NCBI GenBank assembly: GCA_934155265.1
Contig: CAKPGU010000007.1
Location: 6,580-70,579 of the forward strand
Length of the DNA stretch: 64,000 nt
Source of the DNA: an uncultured Clostridia bacterium
GTDB taxonomy: Bacteria > Bacillota > Clostridia > TANB77 > CAG-508
Reading direction: 5' to 3'
The notes beneath the pieces are model-generated. The model did not search any database. It saw only the letters and a list, made by a program, of their open reading frames with translations, and was not told the DNA's origin. The position numbers and the translations under genes are program-made. Position 1 is the first letter of the stretch. Each line of letters starts with the position of its first letter. This document shows, in pieces, positions 31,411-35,544 of the stretch.

Positions 31411-34400
31411 ATGAAAAATGCAATAATGGGATTCTTAAAAAGCAATATAAAGTGGATAATAGGAATATTTATAATAATAGTTTTATTAATATTTTTAGCT
31501 AGTTCAAGTTATGTCTTAAAACTGATTGATTCTTCAAATTCAAATCATTCTTCAGGTTTAGGCGGATTGAATTTTGGTGGTAATAACAACAACATGAATG
31601 CTCGTGTTGAAAATGAGATATCTTCTCAAGTGTCTGTTGGAAATATTGTTTCAAAAGGAAATGGAGATTATAAGTTTAATATAAATTTAGATGATAAAGT
31701 TAATGAATTATATGAAGAATTTTCTAAATCAGAAGAAGGAAGAAGAAAATTAAATTATATTACTGGAACGGAAGAAGAAAAAAAGGAATTGCTCAAAGAC
31801 ATGATAAGAGCAGAACTTATAACCCAATATCCTGATTTAAGAACTGTTTCTAATATGAATAATAAAGTGGATTCTGATGAAGTACAAGGAGTAATTAGAT
31901 TTAAAAGGGTACTATCAGAACCAACAATAAGAAAAGTAGCAAGTATTAAAAAATCTGAAGATACATCAATTGAATTAAATGGTGGTATTGTTTGTTGGGG
32001 CGATGAATTTACATTAGGAGATGCAGAAGATTCTTCTAATAATTATCCAGCGTTACTTGCAGAAAAGTTACAAAAAAATGTATATAACCTAGGATTTGAA
32101 GGAGTAACTTCACAGGAAATTGCTTTATTGGCAGGAGTTGATAAATATACTTTAGTAACAACAAATGAAGAGGATGTTACAATAGGAAAAGAATTAGGTT
32201 CTGAAGTTACAATATCAGTTTCATTAAAAAAAGATGATAATATAATGACACAAACGCCATTTAAAACATTTGATGGAAGTGATGAGAAAAAGAAATTAGA
32301 ATGTACTATAAATGGTGTTGATGGTGAATTAACATATAAAGAAGATTCTGGAACATATGTATTTAAAAGAAAAACAGAAGGTGAAGAAATTAAAATATCT
32401 AAAGATAGTATAATTTCTTTAAAAACACAATCAGGATATAAATCAGCATTTCCAATAATTTGGATAGGAAATGGTAATTCATATATAAATTATAAAAATA
32501 CAGGTTTAGTAAAAAATATTGTAGAAGATTGTTGGTCACTTATAAATATGGCTACAGATCCAGATAATTATATAGTAATAATTCCTACACATTATAGAGA
32601 TTCAAATGGTGAGTTAAAGAAGTATGAGTCTAATGAGTATGATGCCATAAAAAAGGTTTTTATGGAAGAAGCAGGATTTAATACTAATCAAGTGTTAGAT
32701 TTACGAGATAAAATTAATGATGGTAGTGAATATAGTGTAATTGTTGATGAAATAGAAAAATGCATGGAAAAAAATAATATAAAAACTAAAATCAGTGGAG
32801 AATATAATCAAAATATTAGTAACAGTGAAATTATAAAATTAAGTAATGAATATCTTCCATCAGATGGAACTGCAATAACATTGGAATATATTCCTTTAGG
32901 AAATGCATTAGAACCAGCACCAGGAACATTAATGTGGCTTATAAATAATGACGATGTAGAAATTCAAAAAGCAGCATTACAATATTTTTCAATAGATGCT
33001 TCAGGAAATTTAATTGTTGCAAATTGGAGTAAAGTAACTACAACTATTGAGAACTTTACAGATGCAGATGGAAATAGAGATGGATATGTATATGATAATG
33101 GATATCCAACAACAGATGTACAATATACAATAGTACCTTCAAAAGTAAATTATAAGGATTCAACATCACAGTATACAATGCCATTTGACTATTTATGGAC
33201 ATGGATGGTAATGGGTGATGATACAGAATTTGTTAGAAAACTTACGGATTTAACATTAAATAGTTCAATCGAAGCAACATTATATGATGAATTAACTGCT
33301 GTTGAAAATGACGTTGTTGATGAACTTACAAATGGATATAGAACACATTATAAAGAAGTATCAGATGGATATCAATATTATACGCAGGAAATAGCAAGAG
33401 AAATAGAAATTAAGACAAGACATTTAGGAACTTCAACAAGAGAATGGGATTCAGTTAGATATGAAGACAAAAAGAATCATACAAATATTGTAACAGAGAC
33501 AAATAAAATAAGATATAGACTTACATATGCTGATGTTTGGAATTTAACTTATAAAGTTGATGGAGTTGAAAGATTAGAATATAAAGGTGAAGAAGGAAAA
33601 GATTCTGTATCATTTGATGATAGCACAACAACTACAGTTGGTGTAAAAAAACAGGATATTGAAATTCCTGGAAATAGGACAAATATAAAAGCTACTATTT
33701 TTATTCCAGAAGGAACACAATCTAATATGCCATTAGTTTTGATGTGTCATGGTTTTACAGGAACTAGAAATGGAGATGGAGATAATGGAGGCCATTTTAA
33801 CGAATTAGGCAATAAACTAGCTCAAAATGGTGTAGCAGCAGTAACAATAACTTTTTCTGGATGTCAAGATAGTAATGAAGATATGACGAAATATACATTA
33901 GAAAACATGAAGTCAGATATGACGTCAGCAATTAATTATATGAAATCAAATTATTCTATTGATTCAGGTAAAATAGGGCTTGTTGGACATAGTATGGGTG
34001 GAAGAGTAGTTTCAGATTATTTGAGTAATAATTCAGTGTCAACTGCAGCTATATGGGCTCCAGCAGATGGAGATGGATTGTCAGGATTAGAATTTTTAGG
34101 AGATTATTCATCTTATTATGAAACAGCAAAACAAAATGAAACTGTTACAACTGGTGGAAACTTTAATGTTACATTAAGCAAAGAATTTTTTGACCAAATG
34201 AATAATTCTTATCCAACACAAAATATAAAGCAATTTAGAGGAAAACTATTGGCAATATTTGATTCTGACGATAGAGATGGAAATGGATTAATAAGTTCTA
34301 ATACGGTAAATGCAGTAAAATCAGCAGTTTCAAGTCAAGGTGGAACATATAAAGAATTGCAATCAAATCATAATTTTTCTACTGGTGAAGGTGAACAAAT

Positions 34401-35544
34401 AGAAGATATAACATTAGAATTTTTAGGTAATGCATTTGGTATATCAATAAGTAATGAAAGTTCAAATAATAATATAGAAATAAATGATTTATACCAAAAA
34501 ACAGTAAATGATGTAACACCTTATCCTGTAACATGGATAGAATCAGGGGCTAAAAGAGGTCCTACAGTAAGCAATAATAATACAGCTAATGGATATACAG
34601 TTGTATCTCACGAAGAGCAAGATTATACATTAGTTAAAGACCATGTTATAACTACAATAATAATAAAAAGTGGTTATAAATATAGTTCAGGTACAACGAG
34701 TGTAAAAGAAAAAACAGATAAAAATTATACTGAACAAGAGATGAAATCAGGAAATTTTTCAGATCCAAACTTTGTTAAATATTATATATATTGTACTGGC
34801 GTAAGAAATAATATTTCAAGCATGAGTAGTTGGTTATTTGAAGCATTAGAAAATAATTCGAGAACAGAGGGATTGGTAGATATTACTAAATATATGCTTT
34901 ATAAGGCTACTAATAATGATTATGGAGTTACTTCGATGGATTTTTCAGCTTATAATGAACAAGATTTTAAGGATGTAGAAGATATTATAATAAATGATGG
35001 TGGCAATTCATTCAATGGCGGAGATGGAACTGGAACAGGAGGAGACGGAAGTCTATCTGGTGATTCAGGTTCACACTATTGGGGAGTTTATAAAAGAGGA
35101 GATAAAGAATATAAATGTTATTATCAAAATTCATATTCTGGTTCAATGCATAATGCAGGATGTGTTGCAACAGCAGCAGCAATTTGTCATTCAGGATATG
35201 GTAGTACAAAAACTCCTATGGATTTTTGGAATGGGTCTGGAGCAACAGGATGTGGAATTAAACAAATATCAAGAAGTAAATCAGAAATAATTTCATATTT
35301 AAATCAGAATGCTCCTATTGTAATTTATAATTCATTCCCAGGAGGAGAATTTTATGGTTCTTCAGGAGGTCACGCTATTGTTTTAGTTGATGTAAATTCT
35401 AATGGAGAAGTATACGTAATAAATCCTTGGCATGGTAGCAAATGGAATGGATGGTATTCATTAGATTATATATTAAGTTTTAGCCCTGGAAAAAATGCAC
35501 CAAATACAATGGGATCATCAGGAGTTGGAGTAGTATTAAATTAA
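31411..35544 (+). CDS. 1377-aa membrane-anchored multi-domain hydrolase (degenerate SGNH-like, alpha/beta hydrolase, papain-like Cys peptidase)
   Basis: N-terminal TM. IVCWGDEFTLGD (31990s; SGNH block I with Glu in place of Ser). LVLMCHGFTG ... LVGHSMGGRV (Ser codon 33991-33993). C-terminal NAGCVATAAAI (Cys 35161-35163) and GGHAIVLVDV (His 35371-35373). Confidence 0.75.
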   Translation: MKNAIMGFLKSNIKWIIGIFIIIVLLIFLASSSYVLKLIDSSNSNHSSGLGGLNFGGNNNNMNARVENEISSQVSVGNIVSKGNGDYKFNINLDDKVNELYEEFSKSEEGRRKLNYITGTEEEKKELLKDMIRAELITQYPDLRTVSNMNNKVDSDEVQGVIRFKRVLSEPTIRKVASIKKSEDTSIELNGGIVCWGDEFTLGDAEDSSNNYPALLAEKLQKNVYNLGFEGVTSQEIALLAGVDKYTLVTTNEEDVTIGKELGSEVTISVSLKKDDNIMTQTPFKTFDGSDEKKKLECTINGVDGELTYKEDSGTYVFKRKTEGEEIKISKDSIISLKTQSGYKSAFPIIWIGNGNSYINYKNTGLVKNIVEDCWSLINMATDPDNYIVIIPTHYRDSNGELKKYESNEYDAIKKVFMEEAGFNTNQVLDLRDKINDGSEYSVIVDEIEKCMEKNNIKTKISGEYNQNISNSEIIKLSNEYLPSDGTAITLEYIPLGNALEPAPGTLMWLINNDDVEIQKAALQYFSIDASGNLIVANWSKVTTTIENFTDADGNRDGYVYDNGYPTTDVQYTIVPSKVNYKDSTSQYTMPFDYLWTWMVMGDDTEFVRKLTDLTLNSSIEATLYDELTAVENDVVDELTNGYRTHYKEVSDGYQYYTQEIAREIEIKTRHLGTSTREWDSVRYEDKKNHTNIVTETNKIRYRLTYADVWNLTYKVDGVERLEYKGEEGKDSVSFDDSTTTTVGVKKQDIEIPGNRTNIKATIFIPEGTQSNMPLVLMCHGFTGTRNGDGDNGGHFNELGNKLAQNGVAAVTITFSGCQDSNEDMTKYTLENMKSDMTSAINYMKSNYSIDSGKIGLVGHSMGGRVVSDYLSNNSVSTAAIWAPADGDGLSGLEFLGDYSSYYETAKQNETVTTGGNFNVTLSKEFFDQMNNSYPTQNIKQFRGKLLAIFDSDDRDGNGLISSNTVNAVKSAVSSQGGTYKELQSNHNFSTGEGEQIEDITLEFLGNAFGISISNESSNNNIEINDLYQKTVNDVTPYPVTWIESGAKRGPTVSNNNTANGYTVVSHEEQDYTLVKDHVITTIIIKSGYKYSSGTTSVKEKTDKNYTEQEMKSGNFSDPNFVKYYIYCTGVRNNISSMSSWLFEALENNSRTEGLVDITKYMLYKATNNDYGVTSMDFSAYNEQDFKDVEDIIINDGGNSFNGGDGTGTGGDGSLSGDSGSHYWGVYKRGDKEYKCYYQNSYSGSMHNAGCVATAAAICHSGYGSTKTPMDFWNGSGATGCGIKQISRSKSEIISYLNQNAPIVIYNSFPGGEFYGSSGGHAIVLVDVNSNGEVYVINPWHGSKWNGWYSLDYILSFSPGKNAPNTMGSSGVGVVLN

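Follow-up and report, generated by a model that had tools for sequence, protein, structure and literature searches.

Gram-positive type IV secretion systems (T4SSs) possess VirB1-like proteins, which are transmembrane-anchored and multi-domain, with some domains acting as regulators and not as catalysts, e.g. in PrgK; the published classes contain SLT, muramidase, LytM and CHAP modules only (PMC12857230). The T4SSs of Patescibacteria comprise pilin arrays, PrgI, TrsD, VirB4 and VirB6, contain no relaxase and are often located near dnaA (PMC12102498). According to a 2025 review, monoderm T4SSs otherwise lack VirB2-type pilins, and pilin-bearing monoderm systems are unique to Patescibacteria (PMC12857230). 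The present analysis concerns a 64,000-nucleotide stretch of the genome of an uncultured Clostridia bacterium (contig CAKPGU010000007.1), referred to below as the window, and within it one open reading frame (ORF), encoding a 1377-residue protein (the target) in a T4SS gene cluster. New here are an undescribed scaffold, an alpha/beta-hydrolase-type esterase module and cassette swapping at the VirB1 position, in a type of system reported so far only from Patescibacteria.

The same 1377-residue sequence recurred unchanged on 15 contigs, accompanied by many proteins of equal length that were 95-98% identical to it. The long reading frame is thus genuine and an assembly artefact was excluded. An earlier note on this DNA had listed the frame, an N-terminal transmembrane segment and a series of catalytic-site motifs, and all of them were recovered at the residues claimed: IVCWGDEFTLGD at 193-204 (with E199), NLGFEGVTSQE at 226-236, HGFTG at 780-784, GHSMGG at 859-864 (S861), NAGCVATAAAI at 1248-1258 (C1251), GGHAIVLVDV at 1319-1328 (H1321) and NPW at 1338-1340. 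None of the assignments based on them (SGNH, alpha/beta-hydrolase and C-terminal peptidase) was a chance resemblance. The full set of features and their coordinates is given in Table 1.

The alpha/beta-hydrolase domain, with HGFTG as the oxyanion motif and GHSMGG as the nucleophile elbow, scored 30.9 bits against Pfam Abhydrolase_1 (cut-off 25.8). Comparison with Protein Data Bank (PDB) sequences gave an E-value of 1e-15 for the single sequence and 8e-39 for the profile, the latter over the full length of the TTL lipase 7q4h. In this alignment, S861, D954 and H987 were placed opposite the Ser, Asp and His of 7q4h (motifs GLSMGG, GTND and ADH), and S861 also stood opposite S114 of the L. buchneri feruloyl esterase 7z2u, of which 7z2v is the S114A variant. 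The Foldseek search of the domain returned an E-value of 4e-13 and TM-scores on the target of 0.78-0.84, with TTL, the Lactobacillus cinnamoyl, feruloyl and chlorogenic esterases, Est1E and PET46 as fold neighbours. The catalytic triad was preserved in every alpha/beta-bearing member aligned, with the His invariant and the Asp column conserved. By alignment and predicted fold, residues 742-1020 are an intact carboxylesterase/lipase domain with the triad S861-D954-H987 and a predicted activity, and the claim of an alpha/beta-hydrolase core with Ser861 was borne out by both lines of evidence. The alpha/beta type was confined to the subgroup of the target, as none of the 42 distant members and none of the 40 species loci contained it. 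The closest relatives of the esterase outside the family were exported proteins of about 300 residues with signal or lipoprotein-type leaders, 36-50% identical to it and without a name given by their source or an annotated function.

The C-terminal domain (residues 1222-1377), tested alone, reached 38 bits in the comparison with Pfam Peptidase_C39_2 (cut-off 24), the model being matched by seven of eight subfamily members; in the scan of the whole protein the score was only 22.5 bits. Four residues, Q1239, C1251, H1321 and N1338, were invariant in eight sequences down to 33% identity. They form a papain-type set, with the His and Asn 17 residues apart. Fold matches of this domain were SpeB, interpain A, CcbD and cathepsin L, with probabilities of 0.97-1.0 over about 90-105 aligned columns, while its profile gave nothing significant against PDB sequences. 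The domain is therefore best described, on the residue pattern and the predicted fold, as an intact papain-like Peptidase_C39_2 domain with predicted activity. The Cys/His peptidase proposed earlier from Cys1251, His1321 and NPW was in this way supported by a C39_2 score above the cut-off and by a papain-like fold. In orthologues, the place of C39_2 was taken by NlpC/P60, CHAP or M23.

The third enzyme-like part, at residues ~190-470, was of a different nature. A profile of this region matched the GDSL protein 4rsh with an E-value of 1.2e-7, the GDS of 4rsh lying opposite GD[E/D/N/Q/T], and Foldseek placed the region on 4rsh and on E. coli TesA with TM-scores on the target of 0.57-0.61 and a probability of 1.0. 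Block I of the target reads GD-E199, and across 15 aligned members the nucleophile column contained E, D, N, Q or T and no Ser. D430 was invariant, and at +3 from it, the site of the block V His, the aligned members carried D, K, T, A, S or E and none of them His. The oxyanion residues N226 and G228 (block II) and G353 and N354 (block III) were invariant in the 15 members. With the Ser nucleophile and the His of block V both gone from all relatives aligned, this block is, as far as residue conservation can tell, a true SGNH homologue turned pseudo-esterase. The earlier description of SGNH blocks I and II with Glu in place of Ser thus agreed with the 4rsh profile, the fold and the 15-member alignment. 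Genuine SGNH domains (LFIGDSI) fill the same slot in cousin proteins. A hidden Markov model of residues 185-470 of the target subfamily gave no sequence-level match to these genuine domains, so the homology was established through the PDB profile and fold searches instead. The beta insertion of the pseudo-SGNH domain (window 32150-32430, residues ~246-340) gave weak profile matches, E-value ~0.04, to strands of fatty-acid-binding proteins. These matches are probably due to chance, and the insertion could hint at a small ligand-binding sub-domain.

The modules were found to be mounted on a scaffold made of two long beta-hairpins and accompanying domains. The strands of hairpin 1 extended over residues 619-661 and 664-708 and those of hairpin 2 over residues ~1022-1058 and 1061-1091, as read from two independent AlphaFold models with a mean predicted local distance difference test score (pLDDT) of 74-76. 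By arithmetic, a strand of ~43 residues would measure ~14 nm if fully extended. The strands were polar on both faces, with many Thr, Tyr, Glu and Lys residues, and the length of the hairpin region was nearly constant, with 88-120 residues between motifs. The helical bundle that follows carries the motifs PNFVKYY...SWLFEALE...VDITKYMLYKAT. No credible PDB match was obtained for the scaffold, the only resemblances being low-probability secretin matches. The earlier note had reported a segment of ~270 residues that it could not place; this segment does exist, and what had been overlooked is that it is the most conserved part of the protein, the one by which the family is defined. Judged by the alignments, the conserved long-hairpin scaffold is the defining feature of the family.

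At its N-terminal end, the protein starts with the membrane anchor, followed by an Asn/Gly/Ser-rich linker of low confidence reaching to residue ~61 (pLDDT <50 for residues 31-62 in the model of the related protein P0023). Lys residues precede the single hydrophobic helix, which suggests an N-in topology, and the bulk of the target should accordingly be extracytoplasmic. The N-terminal helical region (residues ~62-180) was kept in alignments even with cousins of 20% identity.

A search with the scaffold core (residues 470-741) recovered at least 454 representative clusters at 50% identity, 62 of them with E<=1e-10. Their proteins were ~300-2100 residues long, and no names were found among the distant members looked up. 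A tblastn search of 72,556 plasmid and 50,697 phage records gave no match to the scaffold. The modules identified in 31 orthologues were Phage_lysozyme2 (16), GDSL (11), M23 (10), NlpC/P60 (8), C39_2 (8), CHAP (6) and M15 (3). In 42 distant members, they were lysozyme2 (16), NlpC/P60 (13), M23 (12), C39_2 (7), M15 (5) and GDSL (5), with glucosaminidase (3), phage lysozyme (3), amidase (2) and CHAP (2) being rarer. These counts indicate that the family overwhelmingly carries peptidoglycan hydrolases, with esterases as recurrent companions. An esterase-type module had been considered foreign to the known picture of Gram-positive T4SS hydrolases. This holds for the published classes, which lack one, but not for the relatives of the target, among which genuine GDSL/SGNH domains occurred in 11/31 orthologues and 5/42 distant members. 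In terms of the domain survey, the rare element of the family is the alpha/beta-hydrolase type and not esterases as such.

The presence of the esterase varied between close relatives. Compared with the esterase-free protein P0023 (locus L041), the DNA was 92.5% identical up to window position 33632 and the identity resumed at 34470, 837 bp standing against 12 bp, in frame. In the relatives without the alpha/beta domain, the flanks were 89% identical at the protein level and 92-93% at the DNA level. As the domain is missing from close relatives, it is not required for the core role of the target. Among three carriers, the esterase was 73, 43 and 50% identical to that of the target and the rest of the same proteins ~58, 57 and 44%, respectively. 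This rough parallel points to an old resident of the subgroup that is repeatedly present or absent. Gene order was the same with and without the insert, and no immunity gene specific to the esterase was found. In the insert-free model of P0023, the insertion point corresponded to a 35-residue low-confidence loop (717-751), located between a short strand after the return strand of hairpin 1 and the first strand of hairpin 2. Judged by strand lengths, both hairpins begin and finish at the same end of the stalk, beside the other globular modules, and for this reason the esterase is probably part of a proximal 'head' and not of the distal tip, a placement read from predicted secondary structure.

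A second, larger exchange was detected at the C-terminus. The window and the locus of protein P0017 (L043) were 99.0% identical through window position 35003 (residue 1198 of the target); the identity was then lost and regained at 36130, ~190 codons into p384, the gene downstream of the target. The replaced tract thus comprised the linker and the peptidase domain of the target together with the first ~190 codons of p384 (35563-36130). The C-terminal ~145 residues of p384 were conserved, with a weak DUF4864 match, and the length of p384 changed with the cassette (384, 387 or 417 residues, the L043 copy lying at 10200-11453). In seven loci, three types of target C-terminus, namely C39_2 (A), NlpC/P60 (B) and a divergent Cys/His type (C), paired perfectly with three types of p384 N-terminal part. 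Unlike cassettes were present in three pairs with near-identical cores (window/L043, 99%; L045/L047, 99%; L041/L046, 95%), the core phylogeny being discordant with the cassette types. The boundaries recurred in 3/3 pairs, on the left at target residues ~1184-1198 and on the right at p384 residues 189-192. At the level of these comparisons, the co-exchange of the peptidase with the N-terminal part of p384 is a toxin/immunity-like signature. The earlier suggestion to look for a cognate immunity gene was apt, since the N-terminal part of p384 co-varied with the peptidase; no gene accompanied the esterase. The middle of the VirB6-like gene (window 27395-30417) was hypervariable too, being 77-78% identical or unalignable between flanks of 93-96% identity, and this was repeated in two other strain pairs.

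The target adjoins the VirB6-like side of the cluster, with p320 between, and is followed by p384, which resembles TM/NTF2-like proteins. The p320 and p384 profiles gave nothing significant against PDB sequences. The order of three pilin genes, PrgI, TrsD-like, VirB4, VirB6-like, p320, target and p384 was kept in 40 species-level loci of metagenome-assembled genomes (MAGs), which were found by a profile scan of genome contigs; synteny was judged as far as each locus extends, and p320/p384 were slightly rearranged in a few of them. The labels of the MAGs were uncultured gut Clostridia, Clostridium, Eubacteriales or Bacillota; among them was the closed 1.57-Mb chromosome OZ007016.1. Its position in the cluster, beside the VirB6-like gene, puts the target in the slot of the Gram-positive VirB1-like wall hydrolase, as had been assumed before.

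The window represents a replication-origin region of ~27% GC, with a GC-skew flip near 12-13 kb. The genes dnaA, dnaN, recF and gyrB are oriented leftward and rnpA, yidC, jag, mnmE, mnmG, rsmG, parA and parB rightward. The oriC region occupies 6491-21906, and the T4SS cluster (22440-36717) begins ~9.5 kb from dnaA. No relaxase, integrase or type IV coupling protein (T4CP) was matched among the 35 larger ORFs scanned of the 64-kb window. An ordinary conjugative element was ruled out by this result together with the housekeeping genes flanking the cluster at oriC and the synteny in 40 species. The ordinary T4SS setting assumed in the earlier note consequently had to be replaced by a chromosomal, origin-proximal cluster with a pilin array. 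A frameshifted VirB4, suspected from its two overlapping ORFs, was likewise rejected, because the split was conserved in the loci reaching upstream and the first ORF matched the TrsD family (PMC12102498). A paper on a 'conserved pilin' of TANB77 was set aside as it concerns the Tad/Flp pilus, a separate locus.

Table 1. Features of the target and its surroundings in window coordinates (aa, amino-acid residues of the target)
Feature	Position	Strand	Basis or remark
Target ORF, 1377 aa, modular protein at the T4SS wall-hydrolase position	31411-35544	+	ORF call
N-terminal transmembrane anchor, aa ~12-36	31444-31518	+	hydropathy; helix 2-41 in model of P0023
N-terminal helical region, aa ~62-180, ...ELITQYPDLR... 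motif	31594-31950	+	alignments; BLAST segment 78-172 against P0037/P0039
Pseudo-SGNH domain (predicted), aa ~190-470, with ~100-aa beta insertion	31978-32820	+	alignment, fold, profile
Scaffold part 1 (beta domain, three helices around the invariant MPFDYLW motif at 590, hairpin 1), aa 471-741	32821-33633	+	models, invariant columns
Alpha/beta-hydrolase insert, aa 742-1020, TTL/feruloyl-esterase type	33634-34470	+	profile, fold, in-frame indel
Predicted esterase triad codons S861; D954; H987	33991-33993; 34270-34272; 34369-34371	+	alignment to 7q4h
Scaffold part 2, aa 1021-1198: hairpin 2, EKTDK motif, helical bundle	34471-35004	+	models, alignments
C-terminal cassette exchanged between strains, with a Gly-rich linker (aa ~1199-1221) and the Peptidase_C39_2 domain (aa 1222-1377)	35005-35544	+	left boundary at window 35003
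Predicted peptidase codons Q1239; C1251; H1321; N1338	35125-35127; 35161-35163; 35371-35373; 35422-35424	+	invariant columns
Three VirB2/TrbC-like pilins	22440-22919; 22935-23330; 23402-23752	+	family scans
PrgI/VirB3-like gene	23832-24209	+	family scans
TrsD-like gene, homologue of the VirB4 N-terminus	24175-25422	+	TrsD family match
VirB4 ATPase	25367-27337	+	family scans
VirB6-like polytopic membrane protein, 1026 aa	27327-30407	+	ncbifam MMCAP2_0566, pLS20_p028 and Mbov_0396 families
p320, transmembrane-anchored, directly upstream of target in most loci	30419-31381	+	in 47/47 loci
p384, transmembrane-anchored, TM/NTF2-like, downstream of target	35563-36717	+	in 47/47 loci
dnaA	11502-12905	-	oriC region

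Several further elements were noted around the cluster. Two tRNA genes (window 21996-22084 and 22142-22228) are located between parB and the first pilin gene and could mark an old integration site of the cluster; the adjacency of the cluster to parB was found in locus L001 only. An ABC ATPase and a large permease-like protein (36786-39222) follow the cluster in most loci, including all close relatives reaching that far, and a functional link between them and the cluster may exist. Two pieces of a second VirB4, which belongs to the CD1110 conjugative family, are present, the C-terminal one at 3460-5046 and the N-terminal one at 5330-5884, both on the minus strand, beside gyrB in DNA of 18-21% GC, with a helix-turn-helix regulator at 2400-2756. 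These fragments are probably the remnant of a decayed conjugative element. The region 39904-42180, between a Germane-domain gene and an rsmI-like methylase gene, contains approximately three copies of a ~840-bp direct repeat of 5-17% GC, in which no ORF of at least 40 residues and no Rfam match was detected. A spacer of similar size stands at this position in L001.

Taken together, the target is probably a membrane-tethered, extracytoplasmic, envelope-processing subunit of a chromosomal, lineage-conserved and pilin-bearing T4SS of the MPF-FATA (mating-pair-formation) type, with VirB1, PrgK, TraG and CwlT as its functional counterparts. According to this model, the N-in helix would tether a scaffold, consisting of the N-terminal helical region, the beta domain, the two ~40-residue hairpins and the helical bundle, which would display interchangeable catalytic modules. 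In the present strain the active modules would be the esterase between the hairpins and the C39_2 peptidase on its Gly-rich tether. The peptidase may cut peptide stems or cross-links of peptidoglycan, as suggested by its replacement with NlpC/P60, CHAP, M23 or M15 in orthologues. The esterase may strip an ester-linked envelope substituent that hinders wall opening (such as an acyl ester, or an O-acetyl group carried by peptidoglycan or by some other wall polymer) and so take over the job probably performed by the genuine SGNH esterases of the cousins. Together, the two activities would create a local opening in the wall for the T4SS with its pilus. The pseudo-SGNH domain, which has lost its nucleophile and base and kept its oxyanion residues, is most likely retained in a structural or ligand-binding role. 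The domain identities, the conservation of catalytic residues, the synteny and the module swapping are observed here; the substrates, and the attribution of the attacked wall to the producer or to a partner cell, are inferred. The earlier idea of an envelope-breaching enzyme or effector is retained in so far as an intact esterase and peptidase are predicted at the wall-hydrolase position; the alpha/beta part turned out to be an optional insert.

A number of observations speak against the role proposed for the target. The Pfam, ncbifam and fold scans revealed no SLT, muramidase or lysozyme module in it; a glycosidase, which is the active principle of PrgK-type hydrolases, is thus absent, even though one was present as Phage_lysozyme2 in 16/31 orthologues and 16/42 distant members. 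Among the solved structures, those closest to the esterase belong to enzymes acting on feruloyl, chlorogenic or acylglycerol esters and not on wall polymers, and the domain is dispensable in close relatives. We know of no C39_2 domain established as a peptidoglycan peptidase. The geometry of the hairpins and the site of the insert were taken from AlphaFold secondary structure alone, at a pLDDT of ~75. Finally, three unrelated C-terminal modules on 95-99% identical cores within one lineage are hard to square with a constant own wall, and this diversity fits an action on other cells better.

Such an action is at the centre of a tentative alternative, which might yet hold, in which the target would be a polymorphic effector. 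Its conserved scaffold would serve for delivery and presentation, and its C-terminal peptidase, possibly along with the esterase, would hit the envelope of a neighbouring bacterial or host cell reached by way of the T4SS and pilus. The N-terminal ectodomain of p384 would be the cognate immunity, inhibitor or docking module and would protect the wall of the producer. The two readings are compatible and not mutually exclusive. In the three near-identical-core pairs that differ in C-terminal type, the N-terminal part of p384 switched each time, and the recurrent cassette boundaries and discordant phylogeny resemble polymorphic toxin/immunity loci, known from CdiA-CT/CdiI, Rhs and LXG and, for T4SSs, from X-Tfe/X-Tfi. 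The swapped-in NlpC/P60, M23, CHAP, lysozyme and amidase modules are of the kinds used by wall-targeting effectors of type VI and type VII secretion systems (T6SS and T7SS), and strong fold matches were obtained in BFVD to hydrolases of phage tails and to minor tail proteins, whose targets are foreign envelopes. Moreover, Patescibacteria need their counterpart system to grow as epibionts on a host bacterium (PMC12102498, PMC12857230). However, p384 is a universal component of the cluster with a conserved C-terminal domain, unlike a small dedicated immunity gene, and its adjacency alone could let one recombination tract move both parts. The esterase comes and goes without an accompanying extra gene, the target is anchored in the membrane with no evident release or cleavage site, and a T4CP that would recruit substrates was not among the ORFs scanned. 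The VirB6-like gene is hypervariable as well, so that diversifying selection on exposed parts, driven by phages or host immunoglobulin A, could explain the pattern.

The scaffold itself allows for a structural explanation, in which the hairpins of many copies would form a wall-spanning beta-barrel or fibre, serving as a monoderm T4SS conduit or pilus base for which the enzymes clear space. Four strands of ~30-45 residues predicted in two independent models, with polar faces atypical of a monomeric globular core, would agree with it, as would the near-constant length of the hairpin core and its rank as the best-conserved portion of a family that counts at least 454 clusters. The sole PDB resemblances of the scaffold were to the secretin barrels pIV, InvG and RcpA, but with a probability of 0.07-0.44 and TM-scores of at most 0.16 they are no evidence of homology. 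Single-layer polar beta sheets also occur as monomers, and hairpin 1 shows little sequence conservation in its middle; this explanation, though attractive, is considered unlikely. A bolder combination, in which the oligomerised scaffold forms a wall-spanning conduit or spike that offers polymorphic lytic modules (peptidase, lysozyme, esterase) to the envelope of another bacterium, the cognate protective domains being carried by the neighbour at the VirB8 position, would make the system a contact-dependent attack or feeding device and no accessory of conjugation, the Firmicute counterpart of the Patescibacteria-type T4SS; it is regarded as unlikely. The BFVD matches, among them phage minor tail, tail-fibre and hydrolase proteins, together with the weak recovery of the tape-measure protein P0043 by the family profile through lysozyme/M23 modules, could also be taken to mean that the target is a prophage tail lysin, a tape-measure-like protein or a general autolysin, unrelated to the T4SS and placed there by chance. 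This is very unlikely, given that no phage structural genes were found in the window, that the scaffold was missing from the phage and plasmid records searched, and that the target stays between the VirB6-like and the ABC-transporter/housekeeping genes in 40/40 species.

The envelope-processing role favoured here bears on how monoderm T4SSs traverse the thick wall, and on the role of relaxase-less, pilin-bearing T4SSs, recently found essential in Patescibacteria; the same kind of system is now seen in bona fide gut Clostridia with genomes of ~1.5 Mb. It also brings forward a large unannotated family in which a conserved long-hairpin scaffold is combined with rapidly exchanged wall-active enzymes. 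The swapping of the cassette together with a part of p384 predicts a cognate pair of peptidase and partner, and the optional esterase provides a natural plus/minus comparison. Action of the modules on other cells would make the target a first candidate for T4SS-linked envelope attack in Firmicutes, and action on the own wall would widen the enzyme repertoire of VirB1-type proteins to esterases.

In comparison with known enzymes, the insert was matched over its full length by the TTL lipase of Thermoanaerobacter thermohydrosulfuricus and by Lactobacillus and Butyrivibrio esterases (7q4h, 9h0z, 3pf8, 7z2u, 8skm and 2wtm), with which it has the HGFTG oxyanion motif, the G-x-S-M-G-G elbow, the Asp and the His in common. 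The TTL-group enzymes, to which the Pfam families Abhydrolase_1, Hydrolase_4 and BD-FAE correspond, are free-standing proteins of ~250 residues acting on small aromatic esters or acylglycerols, whereas the domain of the target sits in frame inside a T4SS scaffold protein. With SGNH/GDSL hydrolases, including the peptidoglycan O-acetylesterase Ape1, the target shares the fold as well as blocks II and III. Neither the Ser of block I nor the His of block V is present in any member of the target subfamily, in which the ~100-residue beta insertion occurs.

Among T4SS wall hydrolases, PrgK (pCF10), TraG (pIP501), Orf14 (Tn916), CwlT (ICEBs1) and TcpG (pCW3) are, like the target, encoded within a T4SS cluster near VirB4/VirB6 homologues, and they consist of an N-terminal anchor and a large extracytoplasmic multi-domain part that includes a Cys/His peptidase-type module. 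Silent modules are found on both sides, i.e. LytM/CHAP in PrgK (PMC12857230) and the pseudo-SGNH domain in the target. The target differs in having no SLT or muramidase, C39_2 instead of CHAP or NlpC/P60, a conserved ~450-residue hairpin scaffold, an alpha/beta esterase, a pseudo-SGNH domain and modules swapped between near-identical strains. Outside the enzyme modules, no ncbifam or Pfam conjugation-hydrolase match indicated homology to PrgK, TraG, CwlT, TcpG or CD419. With polymorphic toxin/immunity cassettes (CdiA-CT/CdiI, Rhs, LXG, T6SS Tae/Tai and Xanthomonas X-Tfe/X-Tfi), the target has in common a conserved N-terminal body, a variable C-terminal enzyme and a co-varying partner. It differs from them in that the partner is only the N-terminal part of a conserved, structural-looking gene and that the protein is membrane-anchored.

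The surrounding cluster resembled the T4SS of Patescibacteria, or candidate phyla radiation (Quinonero-Coronel et al. 2025, PMC12102498; Southlakia epibionticum). The present host belongs to uncultured gut Clostridia and not to Patescibacteria, the likeness is based on the parts list and placement rather than on VirB4 phylogeny, and the work on that system (PMC12102498) contains no description of the target's scaffold family. The two systems nevertheless have the same parts list, with wall hydrolases beside virB4, and both are chromosomal and origin-proximal, without a relaxase nearby, in a host with a reduced genome.

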